Shown here in pieces: positions 38,750 to 49,566 of a DNA stretch of 64,000 nt (within the stretch, counting starts at the first letter, position 1; the number at the start of each line of letters is the position of its first letter). The DNA is taken from positions 997 to 64,996 of the forward strand of contig JAHJEX010000074.1 of assembly GCA_018825385.1 (NCBI GenBank), given 5' to 3'. The notes below the pieces were generated by a model. That model saw only the letters and a list, made by a program, of their open reading frames with translations, was not told the DNA's origin and did not search any database. The stretch is from Patescibacteria group bacterium. Lineage in GTDB: Bacteria > Patescibacteriota > Patescibacteriia > UM-FILTER-42-10. Both the position numbers and the translations under genes were made by a program.

Positions 38750-41533
38750 ATGAACAGATCACAGAGAGTAATTTTAGCAACTGTAGCTGCGATATTTGTT
38801 ATCGCTGTTTTACTTACTGGTGCAGTTAGCACTGTTACTGACTGGTTATGGTTTAGCGAGATTGGCCATCAGCAGTTATTCATCACCCCGCTTGTCGCAA
38901 AACTCTCAATGGGATTTGGTGTCGCTATTGTAGCTTTCATATTATTAATGACAATTTTCTCACTAGCCAGAAAATTTTCACCATCCTCCAAATCTTTTAA
39001 TGTTCGAATCAACACTTCGCAAGGTCCAAAAATGAAAGTGGTAGACGCGGGTCCAATTATTCGACGAATTACTGCTCCCATAGTGGCTATTCTTTCAGTT
39101 ATCACTGGAATTATAGCAGCGACAAATTGGGAAACAGTGCTTCTTTATTTTAACAGTACTTCTTTTAATTCTGTTGACCCACTATTTCAGAAGGATATTT
39201 CCTACTATTTTTTCTCTCTTCCCTTTATTGAACTGATATTGAACTTCTCTGTAGGGATCGTACTTGTTGGAATTATCGGATCATTTGTCATTTATCTTTC
39301 ATTGGGAGTGGTGCAGCTGAGAGGAGGGTTGCGCAATTTATTTAGAACTACTGGCCCAAGTATTGTACATGCGGCAAAAAGATTTATTTCTATTCTTTTG
39401 GCAATTTTATTCTTCATCATTGCTGCCAAAACATACTTCATAGAAATGCCGTCTTTGCTTTACAGCACGACTGGATCATTCTTAGGCGCTGGTTATACTG
39501 ATATTCACATTACAGTCCCCATATTGCAAATTTCAGCTATTGTAGCGCTTCTGGTAGGACTACTGCTACTCATACATGCGTTCAAAAGTGTGACAAGAAT
39601 GGTCACATCAGGCATTACTATTTATTTATTAATAGTGATTGTAGGCGGTTGGGCAATTCCTGGAATTGTGCAAAGATTTATTGTTCTTCCAAACGAACTT
39701 GTAAAAGAAACGCCATATATCGAACACAATATAGCTGCAACTCAGAAAGCGTATGGAATTGATAAGGTTGAGAAAAGAGATCTGACGGGGGAAACTACTT
39801 TAACAAATGAAGATATACAAAACAATCAACTAACTATTCAAAACATTCGGCTATGGGACCGTGAACCGTTGTTGGACACATTCAGTCAGTTGCAGGAAAT
39901 ACGAACGTATTATGATTTTGTTTCAGTAGATAATGATCGATACATTATCGACGGAAATTTGCGACAAATTTTGTTGTCTGTGCGCGAGTTAAATGCTGCT
40001 AATCTCCCCCAGAGGAACTTTATCAATGAGCATTTAACATTTACACACGGGTACGGTTTAACAGTTAGTCCGGTAAATGAAGTTACTCCCGAGGGTTTAC
40101 CCGTGCTATTTGTAAAAGACCTGCCTCCAGAATCCTCACTGGCTGAACTGAAAATTGAAACGCCAGAAATTTACTATGGTGAGTTGGCAAATGACTACGT
40201 AATTGTAAACTCAGACGCGAACGAATTCGACTACCCTTCTGGTGAGGAAAATGTATATTCGAATTACACAGGCAACGGGGGGGTTGAAATGTCATCTATG
40301 CTAAATAAATTACTATTTGCACTAAGATTCAAGTCAACAAAGTTGTTTTTGTCTGATGATATTAACAACGAATCTCGTCTGATGATGTATCGTGATATAG
40401 ATCAGCGCGTTAGAAAAGTAGCTCCATTTTTAAAGTTTGATTTAGATCCATATTTGATTATTTCTGAAAGTGGAAATTTGGTTTGGATGTATGATGCATA
40501 TACAACAAGTGACAGATATCCGTATGCAGAGAGAGTTTCAGACCAACGCCTAAAAGACTACACTACTGATGAAACGCCGTTTGCAGACTCAAAGCTGAAT
40601 TACATAAGAAACTCCGTAAAGATCACAATTGATGCTTATACAGGAAAAATGCAGCTTTATGTTTCAGACCCTAACGATCCTATAATTCAGACATATCAGA
40701 AAGTGTTCCCAGAAACTTTCAAGTCGCTTAATGAGATGCCACAAGATCTAAGAGACCATATTCGATATCCAGAGGATTTATTTGTCTTCCAAACAAATTT
40801 ATATTCTGTTTACCACATGGATGACCCGCAGATTTTCTATAATAAAGAAGATCAATGGCAAATCCCCATTAAGCCAGGAAAGGATACTTCTGATCCAATG
40901 ATGCGTCATATGATTATGAAGCTGCCGGAAGAAGAAAAAGAAGAGTTTATACTAATGTTGCCGTTTACACCAAGGGGCAAGGACAATCTGGCTGCGTGGA
41001 TGGTTGTTAGAAATGACAATGAGCATTACGGACAGATAGTTGTGTATAGATTTCCAAAACAGAAACTTGTATTTGGACCTCAGCAGATTATGAACAGAAT
41101 TAATCAGGACCCCGATATTTCAAGACAGATTTCGCTTTGGGACCAAAGAGGATCGCAGGTTGTAGCGGGAAATTTGCTGGTAATTCCTATTGAAGGGTCT
41201 CTGATCTATGTTCAACCAATATATATTCGTGCAGAAGGTGGAAGGATTCCTGAGCTTAAACGCGTAATTGTTGCATATGAAAACAGAATTGCAATGGAAA
41301 CAACATTGGAACAAGCATTAGCAAGATTGTTTGGTGAAATTGACGAAAACTCAGACCAAACAATTACCGCACCGACTGTTGACACCCAGGAATCTGATGA
41401 AAACCTTCTACAGCAGGCAACAGATCTATACAACTCTGCACTGGAAGCTCAAAGGGGCGGTGATTGGACGACATACGGTACGAAAATTGATCAACTCGGA
41501 AGCGTACTTAATAAACTACTACTAGAACAATAA
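38750..41533 (+). CDS. UPF0182-family large membrane protein (COG1615).
   Basis: 927 aa. The N-terminus TDWLWFSEIGHQQLF followed by ~7 TM helices and a large extracytoplasmic domain is typical of UPF0182. Confidence 0.7.
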   Translation: MNRSQRVILATVAAIFVIAVLLTGAVSTVTDWLWFSEIGHQQLFITPLVAKLSMGFGVAIVAFILLMTIFSLARKFSPSSKSFNVRINTSQGPKMKVVDAGPIIRRITAPIVAILSVITGIIAATNWETVLLYFNSTSFNSVDPLFQKDISYYFFSLPFIELILNFSVGIVLVGIIGSFVIYLSLGVVQLRGGLRNLFRTTGPSIVHAAKRFISILLAILFFIIAAKTYFIEMPSLLYSTTGSFLGAGYTDIHITVPILQISAIVALLVGLLLLIHAFKSVTRMVTSGITIYLLIVIVGGWAIPGIVQRFIVLPNELVKETPYIEHNIAATQKAYGIDKVEKRDLTGETTLTNEDIQNNQLTIQNIRLWDREPLLDTFSQLQEIRTYYDFVSVDNDRYIIDGNLRQILLSVRELNAANLPQRNFINEHLTFTHGYGLTVSPVNEVTPEGLPVLFVKDLPPESSLAELKIETPEIYYGELANDYVIVNSDANEFDYPSGEENVYSNYTGNGGVEMSSMLNKLLFALRFKSTKLFLSDDINNESRLMMYRDIDQRVRKVAPFLKFDLDPYLIISESGNLVWMYDAYTTSDRYPYAERVSDQRLKDYTTDETPFADSKLNYIRNSVKITIDAYTGKMQLYVSDPNDPIIQTYQKVFPETFKSLNEMPQDLRDHIRYPEDLFVFQTNLYSVYHMDDPQIFYNKEDQWQIPIKPGKDTSDPMMRHMIMKLPEEEKEEFILMLPFTPRGKDNLAAWMVVRNDNEHYGQIVVYRFPKQKLVFGPQQIMNRINQDPDISRQISLWDQRGSQVVAGNLLVIPIEGSLIYVQPIYIRAEGGRIPELKRVIVAYENRIAMETTLEQALARLFGEIDENSDQTITAPTVDTQESDENLLQQATDLYNSALEAQRGGDWTTYGTKIDQLGSVLNKLLLEQ

Positions 41534-41534
41534 A

Positions 41535-42371
41535 GTGACGCAATATTACAATCCTCATCGTACAAAATACTTATTTGATCCTAAATCCAAAACCCCATTT
41601 AATCTGAGCCGGTCTAAAATTGATTTGTTTATAGCATGCCCTAGATGTTTCTATTTGGATAGACGGTTGGGCGTCGGAAGGCCACCCGGATTTCCGTTCA
41701 ATCTGAACTCCGCAGTAGATACTTTGCTGAAAAAGGAATTCGATATACATCGTGCTAAAGGCACTCCGCATCCATTTATGAAATCGTATGGAATTGATGC
41801 CATCCCGTTTGCTCATCAGGATATTGACCATTGGCGAAATGCATTGAGAGGGGGAGTAGCTTACTTACATAAATCAACAAATTTCATGGTGAAGGGTGCT
41901 ATTGATGATCTCTGGATTAATACTAAAGAAGAGTTGCTAGTTGTTGACTACAAGGCAACCTCAAAAGAGGGAGAAATTTCGATTGATGCTGAATGGCAGG
42001 AGAGTTATAAGCGCCAAATGGAAATTTATCAGTGGCTTTTGAGAAGAAATGGATTTAGTGTCTCTGATACTGGCTATTTTGTATATTGCAATGGCAAGAC
42101 TGATAAACAAGCTTTTGATCAAAAACTTGAGTTTGAGGTTTTTCTTTTGCCATATACAGGTAATGATTCCTGGGTAGAAACCGCAATTACAGAAGCACAT
42201 CAGTGCCTATCAACCAATGTACTACCCGAAGCAAATATGGATTGCGACTATTGTCGATATCGTGATGCAGTCATTAAGGTTACACCAAGGACTAATAAGA
42301 AAAGAATTACGCAAACTAAGAATAAAACCGCCAGGAAAAAGCCAACGTCAAAGAATGCAACATTATTTTAG
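41535..42371 (+). CDS. PD-(D/E)XK nuclease with Cys cluster (Cas4/RecB-like, DUF83-type).
   Basis: N-terminal CPRC, catalytic-type block IDDLWINTKEELLVVDYK (D...E.K), and C-terminal C...CDYC cysteines consistent with an Fe-S cluster. Confidence 0.65.
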   Translation: MTQYYNPHRTKYLFDPKSKTPFNLSRSKIDLFIACPRCFYLDRRLGVGRPPGFPFNLNSAVDTLLKKEFDIHRAKGTPHPFMKSYGIDAIPFAHQDIDHWRNALRGGVAYLHKSTNFMVKGAIDDLWINTKEELLVVDYKATSKEGEISIDAEWQESYKRQMEIYQWLLRRNGFSVSDTGYFVYCNGKTDKQAFDQKLEFEVFLLPYTGNDSWVETAITEAHQCLSTNVLPEANMDCDYCRYRDAVIKVTPRTNKKRITQTKNKTARKKPTSKNATLF

Positions 42372-42468
42372 AAACAAATAAGTAATTTACTGCAGGTTTA
42401 TAGACCCAAAATTAGAAATATTGTATAATCAAGTAAACACAACTAAGAAAACTAACAATAATATTTAA

Positions 42469-43347
42469 ATGCCAAAATTCGACGAAAATTCCAAACCATT
42501 TCAAAAACAAGTATTTCGTTATACTGCTATTACATTTATAGGCGTTCTATTAATTATAAATCTCGTTGTTTATTTTACAGAAATTGCTACAACGATGAGC
42601 AATACAAAATCTACACTGAAGGAAATCGCAACAAATGTTGCGGTAAATGTTTCAAATGTGACGCATGATGAAATTATTACAAATGACCAACAAGACTCCC
42701 AAGAATATATTGAAATCGAAAGTTATTTTCAAAATATTATAGCGGCAAACCCAATAATTGATGACATATACACCCTTCGGACAACGTCTGATCCAAATGT
42801 AATGACATTTGTAGTCGCTGGCAAAGAAACCTATGATGCAAACGGCGACAATTTTATAGATGACACCGAGATTCGGCCTGAGGTTGGCGAAGAATACGAT
42901 GTTACTGGTTTAGATGATCTTAAAAATGGTTTAATAGCTCCTTCAGTAGATAAAGCTATTACTACTAATAAGTGGGGTCAGTGGCTATCTGGCTACGCAC
43001 CAATAGTGGATGATAAGAAACAAACTGTTGCTATACTTGGCGTTGATCAAGCAGCATCAGATATTGCGGATCAAAGCCAGGGGATATTGTATTCTCTGTT
43101 ATATATGGACATTGTACTCTTGCCATTAATGCTTATGCTTGCTTATTTTATGGCAAGAATTGTCAGCAGACCATTCAGAATCTTGGCTAAAGGAATGCAA
43201 AGGATTTCACACGGTGAATTGGATTATAGGTTACCTATTGGTGAGAGGGGTCCACAGGCAATGTTCGTAAGTTTGTTTAACAACATGTTGGGAATGTTTC
43301 AAAATGCAGAGAAGCATGAGAGAAAACATCACGATCTTAATGAGTAA
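42469..43347 (+). CDS. Membrane sensor with extracytoplasmic Cache-like domain and cytoplasmic HAMP domain, but no output domain.
   Basis: TM1 (ITFIGVLLIINLVVYF), a ~170-aa periplasmic domain, TM2, then HAMP (RPFRILAKGMQRISHGELDYRLP). The protein ends ~40 aa later with no HisKA, GGDEF or MCP signalling domain. Confidence 0.6.
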   Translation: MPKFDENSKPFQKQVFRYTAITFIGVLLIINLVVYFTEIATTMSNTKSTLKEIATNVAVNVSNVTHDEIITNDQQDSQEYIEIESYFQNIIAANPIIDDIYTLRTTSDPNVMTFVVAGKETYDANGDNFIDDTEIRPEVGEEYDVTGLDDLKNGLIAPSVDKAITTNKWGQWLSGYAPIVDDKKQTVAILGVDQAASDIADQSQGILYSLLYMDIVLLPLMLMLAYFMARIVSRPFRILAKGMQRISHGELDYRLPIGERGPQAMFVSLFNNMLGMFQNAEKHERKHHDLNE

Positions 43348-43358
43348 GGAAAACAACC

Positions 43359-44228
43359 ATGAGTGTTATCGATGTTAAAAAACTAAAGAAATACTTCGGG
43401 AAAACAAAAGCGGTGGATGATATATCATTCACTGTAGAAAAGGGGGAAATTTTTGGTTTCTTGGGTCCAAATGGTGCGGGGAAAACAACAACAATTCGCT
43501 GTATGATGGATTTTATCCGGCCAACTGAAGGAACTGTAAATATACTCGGTCTTGATGCACAGAAAGACTCTGTAGAGTTAAAAAAGAAAATCGGCTACCT
43601 TTCTGGTAATCTGCGCCTTTATAATAAGTGGACTGGACGGGAGCACATTGATTTTGTTAGTAAGCTAAATGGCAAAGACGATATTGCCAAAGAAATAATT
43701 GAAAAATTTCATTTCAATCCCGATCAAAAGGTTAAATCACTTTCTTCTGGCAACAAGCAAAAGCTAGGAATAATAATGGCGTTTATGACTAACCCAGAAA
43801 TTTTGATAATGGATGAACCAACAAATGCCCTGGACCCGCTACTTCAAAATACGATGTATGAACTCATAGAGGAATCTGCAAAAAACGGCACAACAGTATT
43901 TATGTCATCCCATAATTTGTCTGAAGTTGATAGAGTATGTCACAAAGTCGGAATTATTAAAGATGGAAAAATGGTCGCGACTGAAAGCATCCGTAATTTG
44001 AAAGAAAAACGTTTGTATACGGTAACAGCATATTTTTCTGATATTTTTGATAAAAATGAATTTGTTATGGAAGGCGTTGGGATAACAAAAGAAATACCAG
44101 GCGGCTTATTATTAACTGCTAAGGGCGATATTAATGAGCTTGTCGCAAAACTCAGCGGTCATAATTTAAAGGATCTCCAAATAGAGCATGCATCATTAGA
44201 AGATATATTTCTTGAGTTTTACGAATAA
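43359..44228 (+). CDS. ABC transporter ATP-binding protein.
   Basis: Walker A GPNGAGKTTT, signature LSSGNKQKL, Walker B IMDEPTNALD. Confidence 0.9.
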   Translation: MSVIDVKKLKKYFGKTKAVDDISFTVEKGEIFGFLGPNGAGKTTTIRCMMDFIRPTEGTVNILGLDAQKDSVELKKKIGYLSGNLRLYNKWTGREHIDFVSKLNGKDDIAKEIIEKFHFNPDQKVKSLSSGNKQKLGIIMAFMTNPEILIMDEPTNALDPLLQNTMYELIEESAKNGTTVFMSSHNLSEVDRVCHKVGIIKDGKMVATESIRNLKEKRLYTVTAYFSDIFDKNEFVMEGVGITKEIPGGLLLTAKGDINELVAKLSGHNLKDLQIEHASLEDIFLEFYE

Positions 44229-45031
44229 TGTTTACTATACTTTGGCGAACAATTAAAGATAGAAAATACTCTTTGTTGATTTATTGTCTTTCAGCGCTTG
44301 CCTTAATATGGATGTATATTGCGCTATTGCCGGCAATGGAGAGAATGGCAGATAGTATGATAGAGCTGCTAAGTGGATATCCAGATGCATTTGTTAGTAT
44401 GTTTCCAATAAATGCTGAAAGTTTTGCTAATATAGAAAATTTTCTTGCAATTGAGAATTATAGTTTCATGGTTCCGATTTTGATGATCTTTATGCTAACC
44501 GCAATTGCAGGAGTAAGTTTAGCAGGGGAAGTTGAGACGGGAACTGCCGAGATTATTCTGTCGACTCCTATTTCAAGAGTTAAAATATTTTTTGGCAAAT
44601 ACATATACGGAATAATTGCTATTGCATTTTTTTCATTGTGTTCAACGCTTTCAGTAATACCAGTAGCAAAAATTTATGATGTTTCATATATAGCAGCGAA
44701 CTATTTTACTATGTTTGGTATGTGCTTACTATTTGGCTGGATAACATTTAGTCTAGCAATGTTTCTTTCGGCAATTTTTTCTGAGAAAAGTAGAGTGTAT
44801 ATGTTTCTTGGAGGAATATACATAATGATGTATGTAGTGCAGATCGTGTCAACACTCAGTGAACAGTGGTCTGACGTGAAGTACATCTCATTTTTCCACT
44901 ACTATGATTATGAGGCGGCAATTATTAATAACTCAATCGGTGCGTCAAGTATTTGGGTTTTTGGCATATTAGCAATAATATTCACTGTAGCTGGCGCATA
45001 TTGGTATAATAGGCGAGATTTTGCAATATAA
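44228..45031 (+). CDS. ABC-2 family transporter permease.
   Basis: 6-TM permease immediately after the ABC ATPase. Paralogous to the next gene. Confidence 0.65.
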   Translation: MFTILWRTIKDRKYSLLIYCLSALALIWMYIALLPAMERMADSMIELLSGYPDAFVSMFPINAESFANIENFLAIENYSFMVPILMIFMLTAIAGVSLAGEVETGTAEIILSTPISRVKIFFGKYIYGIIAIAFFSLCSTLSVIPVAKIYDVSYIAANYFTMFGMCLLFGWITFSLAMFLSAIFSEKSRVYMFLGGIYIMMYVVQIVSTLSEQWSDVKYISFFHYYDYEAAIINNSIGASSIWVFGILAIIFTVAGAYWYNRRDFAI

Positions 45032-45033
45032 GT

Positions 45034-45837
45034 ATGTTTACAATATTCATTTCAATTGTTAAGGATAGAAAAAAAGCACTACTCATTTATTGTCTGACAG
45101 GAATTCTTTTTCTGTGGTTATTCATTGCATTCTTTCCTCTCATGCAGGAGCAAACAGCAAGCGTTGTAGAATTAATGGAGGGTATGCCTGAAGGTTTCAT
45201 GAAAGCTTTTGGTGTTGAGAAGGAAAGTTTTACAACTGTCGAAGGGTTTTTAGCAGCAAAACAGTACAGTGCAACTTGGCCGCTGATGGTAATCTTGTTA
45301 TTAGTTGCTATTGCTGGCACGACAATTGCTGGTGAAATTGAAAAAGGGTCCATTGAAATCACATTAGCTAGGCCAGTATCGAGAGAAAAAATATTTTTTG
45401 GCAGATACATGGCCGGGACAGCCATGCTGCTTGTTTTCACGTTTTTTTCAATTTATTCTGTGCTGCCGCTTTCAGTAATTTATGATGTCGATATCCAGTT
45501 ATCCAGTATTGTTAAACTATCTGTAATTGCTTTTCTATTTGGATTAGCAGTTTTGAGTCTATCTATGTTTATGTCCGCATTGCTATCAGAAAAAAGTAAA
45601 GTGTATATGATAGTTGGCGCACTTTTGATAAGTATGTACATAATGAATACTGTAGCTTTAATTAAAGTCGAGTTAGAGAACATAAGGTATGCATCATTTT
45701 TCAATTATCTAGACACGAACGGTGCATTAATACTAAATGAAATGAGTGCATTATCTATTTGGGTATTTATTGGTTCCGCAATAGCATTTACTTCAGTTGG
45801 AGCTTACATATTTAACAGACGCGATATTGCAGCTTAG
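45034..45837 (+). CDS. ABC-2 family transporter permease (paralog).
   Basis: Same length (267 aa) and topology as 44228..45031. Shared N-terminal MFTI...RKYSLLIYCL pattern. Confidence 0.65.
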   Translation: MFTIFISIVKDRKKALLIYCLTGILFLWLFIAFFPLMQEQTASVVELMEGMPEGFMKAFGVEKESFTTVEGFLAAKQYSATWPLMVILLLVAIAGTTIAGEIEKGSIEITLARPVSREKIFFGRYMAGTAMLLVFTFFSIYSVLPLSVIYDVDIQLSSIVKLSVIAFLFGLAVLSLSMFMSALLSEKSKVYMIVGALLISMYIMNTVALIKVELENIRYASFFNYLDTNGALILNEMSALSIWVFIGSAIAFTSVGAYIFNRRDIAA

Positions 45838-45853
45838 TTACTAACAAAATAGC

Positions 45854-46594
45854 ATGCGAATTGAACCAAGCGTGGCCACTGTAAATCCTAAACCAGAGAT
45901 TAAGAAAGAGAAAAAGCCGCGAAGAAAAAAGAAAAAATGGGTGAAATGGCTTATTATTTTATTAGTCGTTCTTAGCTTACCGATTTTGTTGCTTGGCGCA
46001 TCTGGGATTTTCAATATCCCAATTCTCTCTCACATATTCGGTGCAAATAGCCCAAAAGACCTGGGAATTGAGGTAAGTGAGCAAGCATTGCAATCAGGTT
46101 TAAAAAAGTTTCCAGTTGAACTGAAGAGTGAGCCGGGAACTTTTACTGGCATAGGTAAAAAAGAATTTGAAGGTAAAGTTGCCATAGATGCTGAATACAC
46201 TTCAGAAGAGATAACATCAGCACTAGATAATTTATTTTCAAATGCTCCTCATGTAAGCAACGTGCAAGTTAAATATATTGAAGGAGGAATGGAGGTATCT
46301 GCATTTGTCAAGACATATTTAAACGCTCCAGTTTACGCAAAAGTTGGTGTAGAAAGAGTTAGTGATAAATCAATTGATATAAATATTGAAAAAATAAAGA
46401 TCGGAATAGTGCCTATTCCGGAAAAATATTATGAAGATGTTGGGAAGGCCGTCGAGGATATTGTGAATGACAGAATGCAGGCGGTGGAAAGCTTTTCTAT
46501 GGATCTGTTAGAGTATCATGATGGCTATTCGTATCTAAAAGGAACATTTCCAAAATCTGTCAAAATGCTACCGGGAGAGGAAGATATATTTTAA
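45854..46594 (+). CDS. Hypothetical membrane-anchored protein (Lys-rich N-terminus, single TM, extracytoplasmic domain).
   Basis: KKEKKPRRKKKK followed by a TM helix. No known motif. Confidence 0.45.
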   Translation: MRIEPSVATVNPKPEIKKEKKPRRKKKKWVKWLIILLVVLSLPILLLGASGIFNIPILSHIFGANSPKDLGIEVSEQALQSGLKKFPVELKSEPGTFTGIGKKEFEGKVAIDAEYTSEEITSALDNLFSNAPHVSNVQVKYIEGGMEVSAFVKTYLNAPVYAKVGVERVSDKSIDINIEKIKIGIVPIPEKYYEDVGKAVEDIVNDRMQAVESFSMDLLEYHDGYSYLKGTFPKSVKMLPGEEDIF

Positions 46595-46597
46595 AAT

Positions 46598-46879
46598 ATG
46601 AAGAAGACTTTATATATAATATTATCAACGGTTTTAGGAATCATAGTCAGTTTTTTATTTCACGCAATCATTGAATACATATTTATTAGGTCAACCGAAG
46701 ATAGTGCAATAACTTGGAATAGTAGCTTTGGAATTGGTAGTTGTGCACTACCTGAATGGCTCCAATATTCTTTGCTGGGGATCGGAATTGTTAGTGGTAT
46801 AATAGTTGGTTTTTGCTGGTGGAATATCGTATATATTCAAAAACGTCATTGGCGGAATAAAAAACATAAAGCAGACTGA
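46598..46879 (+). CDS. Small 2-TM membrane protein.
   Basis: 93 aa with two hydrophobic helices. Sits between the hypothetical and the SPFH gene. Confidence 0.4.
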   Translation: MKKTLYIILSTVLGIIVSFLFHAIIEYIFIRSTEDSAITWNSSFGIGSCALPEWLQYSLLGIGIVSGIIVGFCWWNIVYIQKRHWRNKKHKAD

Positions 46880-49543: not shown

Positions 49544-49566
49544 CCCCCCAAAAATGGGGGTTTTTA
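49544..49566 (+). terminator. Rho-independent terminator following the microprotein ORF.
   Basis: CCCCC(C) / aaaaat / GGGGG hairpin followed by TTTTT. Confidence 0.6.

Follow-up and report, generated by a model that had tools for sequence, protein, structure and literature searches.

What does a HAMP domain signal to when nothing follows it? HAMP domains are regarded as relays between the input and the output of the same protein, and the question is raised by a gene of a Patescibacteria group bacterium (assembly GCA_018825385.1) located on a 64,000-nucleotide (nt) stretch of contig JAHJEX010000074.1, hereafter the window. The gene codes for a membrane receptor (hereafter the sensor) with an extracytoplasmic Cache-like domain and a C-terminal HAMP domain. 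It opens a series of four co-directional open reading frames (ORFs) spanning positions 42469-45837, the other three encoding an ATP-binding cassette (ABC) ATPase and two ABC-2 permeases. An earlier note on this DNA had offered two explanations, either a receptor that gates or partners the exporter or the remnant of a kinase that lost its transmitter. The analysis reported here leans modestly towards another answer, an orphan receptor with an uncoupled HAMP domain that would signal to a separately encoded partner, the downstream ABC-2 exporter being at best a clade-specific candidate for that role.

Architecture and family of the output-less receptor

The sensor gene and its parts, with transmembrane (TM) helices and the two HAMP helices (AS1 and AS2) as placed by hydropathy, Pfam and an AlphaFold2 (AF2) model, were as follows:

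42469..43347, plus strand: output-less Cache-HAMP receptor gene, 292 aa (whole ORF including the stop codon)
42517..42588, plus strand: TM1, about aa 17-40 (Kyte-Doolittle 19-residue windows above 1.6; within AF2 helix 9-60)
42589..43080, plus strand: extracytoplasmic single Cache/PAS-like sensor domain, about aa 41-204 (AF2 fold; Foldseek; conserved motifs)
42835..42870, plus strand: EF-hand-like loop of 12 residues, DANGDNFIDDTE (aa 123-134), an insertion within the Cache fold and possible Ca2+ site (sequence pattern)
43081..43164, plus strand: TM2, about aa 205-232 (hydropathy; continuous with AS1 in AF2 helix 196-247)
43165..43308, plus strand: HAMP domain, about aa 233-280, with AS1 from RPFRILAKGMQRISHG, connector ELDYRLPIGERGP and AS2 QAMFVSLFNNMLGMFQNAEK (Pfam PF00672; AF2)
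43309..43347, plus strand: charged C-terminal tail (HERKHHDLNE-type) and stop codon, no output domain (alignment)

The topology described in the earlier note (TM1, Cache-like domain, TM2, HAMP) was borne out. About 165 aa separated the two hydrophobic segments of the hydropathy scan, and a HAMP domain (PF00672, E 1.2e-6, 29.2 bits against a gathering cut-off of 25 bits) was the sole domain assigned by Pfam; NCBI lists an identical protein under the name 'HAMP domain-containing protein [Patescibacteria group bacterium]'. The AF2 model, of the monomer and built on 96 homologues, reached a mean predicted local distance difference test (pLDDT) score of 91.9 and displayed a first helix (9-60, TM1 and stalk), a PAS-like sheet (99-195), a second long helix (196-247, TM2 and AS1), a connector (248-261) and a final helix (262-291, AS2), i.e., a helix-connector-helix arrangement in its HAMP part. 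The HAMP directly followed the last TM helix, had two helices with a connector of about 14 residues between them, and carried a proline at the start and a glycine at the end of AS1. Its AS2 bore FNNM, of the canonical FNxM type, and reached the C-terminus, with about 12 charged residues beyond the HAMP. The absence of any transmitter domain was confirmed, while the statement that the protein ends some 40 residues after the HAMP was not, the string quoted for it being AS1 plus connector and the remainder mostly AS2.

Located between the two TM helices, the ectodomain displayed the Cache layout in the AF2 model, in which a PAS-like alpha/beta sheet comes after a long N-terminal helix. The full-length WalK model 9a5d_A was the best Foldseek match in the PDB (E 7e-11, TMq 0.65), and further matches comprised Tlp3, KinD, the WalK ectodomain, the formate sCache 8py0 and CitA (E 1e-3 to 1e-5). 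At the sequence level, no Pfam Cache model matched the window sensor at E<=1, and matches in three of 16 family members were sub-threshold (Cache_3-Cache_2 E 0.026, sCache_3_3 0.048, dCache_1 0.086). A PDB sequence search with the first family profile gave no matches, and a wider family profile gave only sub-significant ones to HAMP, CitA and troponin C. The Cache-like assignment is thus one of predicted fold only. The ectodomain motifs YTLRxT and KWGxWLSGYAPI…GVD were kept across 96 relatives, and no cysteine occurred in the 292-aa sensor. The protein is presumably a receptor of the dimeric type, and would act as a dimer.

The ectodomain represents a distinct Cache subtype with an EF-hand-like loop. 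The loop followed the pattern D-x-N-x-[DN]-x-x-[IV]-[DE]-x-x-E, with LDxNxNGxxDxxE as the consensus of 96 sequences and with D123 and E134 invariant in the family alignment. Weak EF-hand Pfam matches were obtained in two of 16 family members, and troponin C weakly matched the family profile at profile positions 122-173. The loop recurred in kinase relatives of the sensor but not in the relatives P0041 (HAMP-PP2C) and P0074 (HAMP-HD-GYP).

Relatives ending in the same way were found well beyond the window. A word-indexed protein search retrieved seven output-less relatives (53-100% identity, 292-309 aa), and orthologues at 53-76% identity retained the length of the sensor. The picture of a tiny clade of seven proteins given by that search was overturned by an exhaustive HMMER search (5054 matches among 1.84 billion representatives), in which at least 12 clusters (50% identity) of proteins of 275-305 aa, aligned over their full length including the HAMP, were found among the top-scoring matches. 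Family members only 26-40% identical to the window protein also ended without an output domain, and all 16 aligned members stopped 10-25 residues past AS2. P235, G249, F270 and N271 were invariant in this alignment, and HAMP was matched by Pfam in 13 of the 16 members. The output-less family appears confined to Patescibacteria and is a new, apparently undescribed family of a known kind, that of Cache-TM-HAMP receptors without output.

The ratio of nonsynonymous to synonymous substitution rates (dN/dS) was 0.03 overall and 0.02 in the HAMP between the sensors of loci L007 and L008 (L numbers designate loci, P numbers proteins). This close pair alone gave a clean ratio, since synonymous sites were saturated in most other pairs; between the window and L001, where they were likewise saturated, the HAMP was the region with the fewest nonsynonymous differences (pN 0.06). 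The sensor is under strong purifying selection, HAMP included. Retention of length at 53-76% identity along with a dN/dS of about 0.03 indicates real genes rather than chance ORFs. The output-less proteins formed one clade in a rough neighbour-joining (NJ) tree, sister to the HAMP-PP2C and HAMP-HD-GYP relatives. Conservation of the output-less state, monophyly and purifying selection all point to any loss of an output domain being ancient; judged from these sequence comparisons, the family is old and its product functional, not a pseudogene.

The same ectodomain was found with outputs in about 95 proteins of about 470 aa (word-indexed search). These outputs comprised histidine kinase cores (mostly without HAMP), HAMP with HD-GYP, HAMP with SpoIIE/PP2C, HAMP with adenylate cyclase and HAMP with MCP. 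Since the ectodomain is fused to at least five kinds of output in the phylum, it is a signalling input module. Kinases that share it are distant paralogues (at most 31% identity to the window protein).

Other arrangements of the module were also observed. P0053, P0070 (L043:5001-6020) and P0084, of about 340 aa, displayed the ectodomain and TM2 followed by a DHp-like helix with an H-box ASHKLGGPIATLRWW and without HATPase_c, and in L043 this truncated architecture was not cut by a contig end. P0107 (1412 aa), P0118 (991 aa) and similar proteins harbored three to five tandem TM-Cache(EF-loop)-TM repeats and no other output; by eye, their N-terminal cytoplasmic region looks of winged-helix/TrmB type, and these giants could be membrane-tethered one-component regulators. 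In a distant relative (L114:238-2228 and L119:3371-5361, on contigs 98% identical), a 316-aa Cache-HAMP ORF and a 351-aa PAS-HisKA-HATPase ORF overlapped by 16 nt in different frames, and where they meet, the sequence has the look of a frameshift in a kinase that was once fused.

The ABC-2 exporter and the gene neighbourhoods of the receptor

As the earlier note had described, an ABC ATPase and two paralogous ABC-2 permeases lay directly 3' of the sensor gene. The features surrounding it were:

43359..44228, plus strand: ABC ATPase, 289 aa, DrrA/GldA-like with a DrrA-type C-terminal domain (Pfam; NCBIfam)
44228..45031, plus strand: ABC-2 permease 1, 267 aa, PF12679, remotely NosY/GldF-like (Pfam; NCBIfam; PDB profile match)
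45034..45837, plus strand: ABC-2 permease 2, 267 aa, paralogue of permease 1 (Pfam; alignment)
45854..46879, plus strand: a pair of uncharacterised conserved membrane proteins, 246 aa and 93 aa (in the subclade of ABC-linked sensors described below, collinear with the block)
42401..42429, plus strand: promoter-like site TAGACC-17-TATAAT (10/12 consensus matches, within the 97-nt gap 5' of the sensor gene)
49545..49560, bidirectional, no strand assigned: intrinsic-terminator-like hairpin, the first strong one downstream (terminator scan)

The ATPase matched ABC_tran (PF00005, E 2.4e-30) and had the DrrA C-terminal domain. Both permeases matched ABC2_membrane_2 (PF12679, E 1.2e-17 and 2.5e-15), as expected of an exporter of the ABC-2 type, and were 44% identical to each other. 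Among NCBIfam models, the ATPase was nearest to DrrA, GldA and PmtA and the permeases weakly near to GldF, all below equivalog cut-offs, and NosY (7o0y, E 2.5e-4) was the only meaningful PDB match of the permease profile. L005 and L007 possessed a single permease-1-like gene and L046 a single one scoring best as permease-2-like, while L010 and L012, which have no sensor, possessed both permeases; this suggests an old duplication of the permease followed by differential loss.

The stop codon of the sensor was separated from the ATG of the ATPase by 11 nt, and a Shine-Dalgarno-like motif (AAGGA) overlapped the stop. Four further co-directional genes lay between permease 2 and the hairpin at 49545-49560. 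No strong hairpin of this kind precedes it downstream of the sensor, which suggests that the co-directional genes from the sensor up to a DUF2207 gene are transcribed as one long unit. Promoter-like sites in the region were not more numerous than the shuffled expectation, and the site at 42401..42429 is only suggestive as a putative promoter of the sensor.

When one genome of each GTDB species was scanned, the permease family was encoded at 33 loci. These came from Berkelbacteria, Saccharibacteria, WWE3, CPR2, Woykebacteria, Doudnabacteria, some Actinomycetota bins and haloarchaea. Nearly all of these loci kept ATPase and permease as an intact pair, and the sensor adjoined only two of the 33 (L007 and L008, both from the window's own clade), so that the ABC pair occurred without it in about 30 lineages. 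The ATPases of the sensor-less loci L010 and L012 scored as high against the window ATPase as those of the sensor-linked L007 and L008. Elsewhere the gene 5' of the ATPase encoded a TetR regulator (directly 5' in L012:4516-7612), a PAS-HisKA-HATPase kinase along with two stand-alone REC genes (directly 5' in L014:2814-6804, Berkelbacteria), a patatin (L026, L027), a DNA-alkylation repair enzyme, Ppx, ZIP, NUDIX or others. Stand-alone REC genes were also located near the ABC pair in L032, L034 and L036.

Seen from the side of the sensor, for which a metagenome scan yielded 80 loci, ABC genes followed it in three settings only, namely the window clade, L046 and, as a remnant, L063. In L046, whose sensor is 47% identical, the order was REC, sensor, ATPase and one permease, then homologues of the 246-aa, 93-aa and DUF2207 proteins. 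Nine deeper lineages with adequate flanks (39-43% identity) displayed an unrelated gene 0-20 nt after the sensor. The genes 3' of these deep-branch sensors encoded a class-II (D/K/N-type) aminoacyl-tRNA synthetase (L049), an S-adenosylmethionine (SAM) methyltransferase and a zincin (L050), MGMT and a hydrolase (L051), a transposase (L053), DnaG and sigma-70 (L055, L056) or YgjP (L061). In L049 and L061, the sensor lay behind MreBCD, PBP2 and GreA. As equally tight spacing to unrelated genes is normal in this family, the short gap to the ATPase is uninformative about coupling.

ABC-linked sensors made up one derived subclade of the NJ tree. ABC adjacency is not a trait of the sensor family, and the ABC link is weak; inheritance of gene order in a compact genome explains the adjacency more simply. 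The earlier note had held that lack of co-occurrence with the ABC genes would speak against a partnership, and at the level of the family this was largely the case (sensor at two of 33 permease loci; unrelated 3' genes at the deep-branch sensors). What stood of the proposed partnership is the adjacency kept within the subclade down to 47% identity, along with the joint decay of sensor and ABC genes in L063 described below.

Other neighbours were no better conserved. A gene for a PD-(D/E)XK nuclease lay 5' of the sensor in the window clade and in the deep-branch L050 only, about as widely kept as the ABC link, and a functional link of the sensor to a nuclease seems unlikely. A stand-alone REC gene adjoined the sensor only in L046 and L063, and the homologue of the 246-aa protein was restricted to the subclade and L054. 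The 246-aa protein displayed a lysine-rich N-terminal tail, one TM helix and an ectodomain, and its L054 homologue (L054:7389-8171, E 5e-113 against the profile) was encoded one gene 3' of a deep-branch sensor without adjacent ABC genes. L054 also contained a different ABC-2 pair, 1.8 kb 5' of the sensor.

The REC-only response regulators of L046 (L046:113-505) and L063 (L063:5617-5985) had an intact acidic pocket and lay about 15 nt 5' of the sensor in this sister lineage of the window clade, with no kinase nearby. Their position hints at a two-component ancestry or at a relationship between REC and HAMP. The segment L063:5617-7200 (contig Ga0210017_1001009) comprised this intact REC, a sensor with one frameshift near aa 132 and only the first 41 codons of the ATPase, followed by UPF0182, and the Walker A motif of the ATPase stub was altered to GSNKAG. 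This single observation may reflect co-decay of sensor and exporter, or a sequencing error.

In the window (38750-42371 and flanks) and in L001-L008, genes for a polysaccharide flippase, glycosyltransferases, Dus, UPF0182, the PD-(D/E)XK nuclease, SPFH, DUF2207 and Wzy-like proteins were collinear. As this stretch mixes unrelated functions, gene order is conserved here without obvious functional coherence. A polysaccharide-export (Wzm/Wzt-like) role of the exporter, which the flanking glycosyltransferase and Wzy genes had brought to mind, was rejected, the permeases belonging to PF12679 and not to the Wzm type and the intervening genes being unrelated. In L040:1-6395 (contig Ga0114951_10000290), the HAMP-HD-GYP protein P0074 was encoded directly 3' of a fused ATPase/ABC-2 protein (931 aa), an ABC-2 permease (374 aa) and a TolC-like outer-membrane efflux protein.

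Proposed signalling in trans and its alternatives

The reading favoured here is that of an orphan uncoupled-HAMP receptor whose partner is encoded separately. In the most likely mechanism, the Cache ectodomain would sense a cue from outside the cell, possibly in a Ca2+-dependent manner, and the conformation of TM2 and the HAMP would change. This change would then be read in trans by a separate protein contacting the HAMP bundle or the TM helices, as has been shown for the Cache_heme-HAMP receptor and its Ser/Thr kinase. Several observations weigh against this reading. No neighbour conserved across the deep-branch family emerged from all-vs-all BLAST clustering and Pfam, and no kinase, REC or sensor paralogue was found in the 64-kb window. 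A phmmer search with the PknB catalytic domain gave no Hanks kinase match in the window or in 123 loci. The EF-hand-like loop may be a Ca2+ site, metal binding being suggested by its residue pattern, and the family tree is a quick NJ tree rather than a robust phylogeny. On the side of the exporter, sensor-ABC adjacency persists to 47% identity in the subclade (L046), and the decay seen in L063 would fit a real functional link there. The output-bearing relatives P0074 and P0010 adjoin ABC exporters, although ABC genes are so common that this proximity may be coincidental.

A clade-specific partnership between sensor and exporter is a minority possibility for the subclade and is not supported as a general property. 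In such a module the receptor would be an accessory subunit that contacts the exporter, by its HAMP on the C-terminal domain of the ATPase or by its TM helices on the permeases, and gates it without phosphorylation, which is unlikely but deserves serious consideration. The 11-nt gap with its Shine-Dalgarno-like motif and the lack of a strong terminator before 49545 would suit it, but adjacency is limited to one derived subclade, and in at least nine deeper lineages the sensor is followed just as closely by unrelated genes. The order sensor-ATPase-permease was kept in all subclade members to 47% identity despite changed flanks (REC in L046 and L063, the PD-(D/E)XK nuclease elsewhere), yet about 30 lineages, L010 and L012 among them, keep the ABC pair without a sensor. 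Reduction of the L063 ABC genes to a 41-codon stub with a broken Walker A, beside a frameshifted sensor, also speaks for gating, but this frameshift was seen only once, and an error in sequencing could account for it. The ABC family is found behind other regulators elsewhere (TetR in L012; a histidine kinase and two REC in L014), so the slot upstream is sometimes regulatory, and the remote similarity of the permeases to NosY recalls ABC-2 systems with an extracytoplasmic partner. The lengths of ATPase and permeases nevertheless do not differ between loci that have the sensor and loci that lack it, and thus reveal no added docking element. The fuller scenario, in which an ancient Cache-HAMP receptor was co-opted in the subclade as a ligand-sensing, possibly Ca2+-dependent subunit that binds and gates the exporter without phosphorylation, is slightly less likely again.

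Three further explanations dispense with the exporter. The sensor could have a structural rather than a signalling role, its Ca2+-loop ectodomain acting outside the cell, for example in attachment (to a surface or host), in the binding of cations or in organising the envelope, with the HAMP as no more than a cytoplasmic dimerisation plug. The lack of an output domain and of a conserved partner, the EF-hand-like loop, the large relatives with three to five tandem TM-Cache-TM units, and the proximity of envelope and glycan genes in the window and of MreBCD and PBP2 in L049 and L061 are all in line with this. It is made improbable by the HAMP being the most conserved part between the window and L001, with all canonical signalling motifs kept, and by the same ectodomain being overwhelmingly joined to signalling outputs. 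More improbable still is a decoy or modulator that heterodimerises with full-length Cache-module paralogues and tunes them; related bacteria do have many paralogous Cache-bearing kinases, phosphodiesterases and related proteins, but the 64-kb window held no such paralogue, and the output-bearing relatives are at most 31% identical, which is low for specific heterodimerisation. The decaying remnant of a histidine kinase or other transducer, with a recently lost transmitter, as proposed in the earlier note, is very improbable and is rejected here. Fused kinase versions of the ectodomain exist, the REC gene directly 5' of the sensor in L046 and L063 hints at two-component ancestry, and L114 and L119 illustrate how a frameshift can split Cache-HAMP from the kinase part. 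Against these, length and C-terminal end point are kept across members that share only 26-40% identity with the window protein, an output is lacking in every orthologue and family member, and dN/dS is low, at about 0.03 overall and about 0.02 in the HAMP. The frameshifted kinase domain that the note had envisaged at the 3' end or downstream has no room, the next gene starting 11 nt on without kinase debris in between. No orthologue or family member carries a fused transmitter, the nearest fused relatives being distant paralogues.

Reduced-genome Patescibacteria keep a whole family of uncoupled-HAMP receptors under strong selection, built on the same Cache module as their kinases and cyclic-nucleotide enzymes. 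The family would offer a handle on surface sensing by poorly understood, probably host-dependent bacteria. For the compact genomes of the candidate phyla radiation (CPR, i.e., Patescibacteria), the present case shows in practice that genes should not be taken for a functional module just because they lie about 10 nt apart in a conserved order. Should exporter gating prove true instead, a Cache-HAMP receptor acting on a transporter would reverse the Bce logic and represent a new mode of ABC transporter control.

Comparison with known receptor and exporter systems

ABC-2 systems such as NosDFY and GldAFG work with an extracytoplasmic or accessory membrane partner. The exporter of the window resembles them through the NosY match and the weak GldF similarity of its permeases and through the scores of its ATPase on GldA and DrrA models. 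All of these scores are far below equivalog cut-offs, however, no homologue of NosD, NosL or GldG was found here, and the Cache-HAMP protein is unrelated to those accessory proteins.

A sensor gene adjoining an ABC exporter also recalls the Bce and Lnr modules of Firmicutes (BceRS-BceAB; LnrJK-LnrLMN), LnrLMN being composed of one ATPase and two ABC-2 permeases. The sensors of these modules are complete kinases without ectodomains, whereas the sensor described here has neither HisKA nor HATPase. BceB is a permease of the FtsX type with a large extracellular domain, in contrast to the 267-aa ABC2_membrane_2 permeases of the window. In those modules, sensor and transporter co-occur as a conserved feature of the family, which is not the case here. 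The conformation of BceS is reported to be under the control of its transporter (bioRxiv 10.1101/2020.02.28.969956).

The best whole-model structural match of the sensor was the N-terminus of WalK/YycG (TM, sCache/PAS ectodomain, TM, HAMP), which differs by continuing into PAS, DHp and catalytic domains and shares only about 10-13% sequence identity with it. The sensor is of the uncoupled-HAMP kind, with TM-sensor-TM-HAMP, nothing after the HAMP, and conservation of this arrangement among relatives. The verdict of the earlier note that either of its explanations would be unusual is a fair one, but output-less HAMP proteins have precedents. Af1503 of Archaeoglobus fulgidus is a membrane protein with a C-terminal HAMP and no output domain after it (PMC3585426). 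It provided the prototype HAMP structure (PDB 2L7H/2ASW) and is likewise HAMP-terminal, and its HAMP chains matched the family profile below significance (E 0.03-0.2); it is archaeal, with an unrelated N-terminal part.

The second precedent is the Cache_heme-HAMP receptor (CHH) of Pseudomonas azotoformans, whose operon encodes a Ser/Thr kinase that was shown by biochemistry and cryo-electron microscopy (cryo-EM) to dock on the HAMP (Deshpande et al., bioRxiv 10.64898/2026.05.25.727664). Uncoupled HAMPs are uncommon according to its authors (same preprint), and a literature search on HAMP-only or orphan HAMP proteins returned nothing relevant besides this preprint and the Af1503 papers. CHH and the sensor share the order TM, single Cache-type ectodomain, TM and C-terminal HAMP without intrinsic output. 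They differ in that CHH carries a heme-binding CXXCH motif in its Cache domain, while the sensor has neither this motif nor any cysteine, and its ectodomain belongs to another Cache subfamily, with an EF-hand-like loop. CHH comes from Proteobacteria and the sensor from Patescibacteria, and the CHH operon includes a PknB-like kinase and sometimes a PP2C phosphatase, whereas no Hanks kinase or PP2C phosphatase was found near the sensor. The sensor is not a CHH member. Work on how a HAMP can signal when no output is joined to it has only recently begun, with the CHH receptor in 2026. The Patescibacteria family would provide a second, independent and partner-less test bed for signalling in trans by uncoupled HAMPs.

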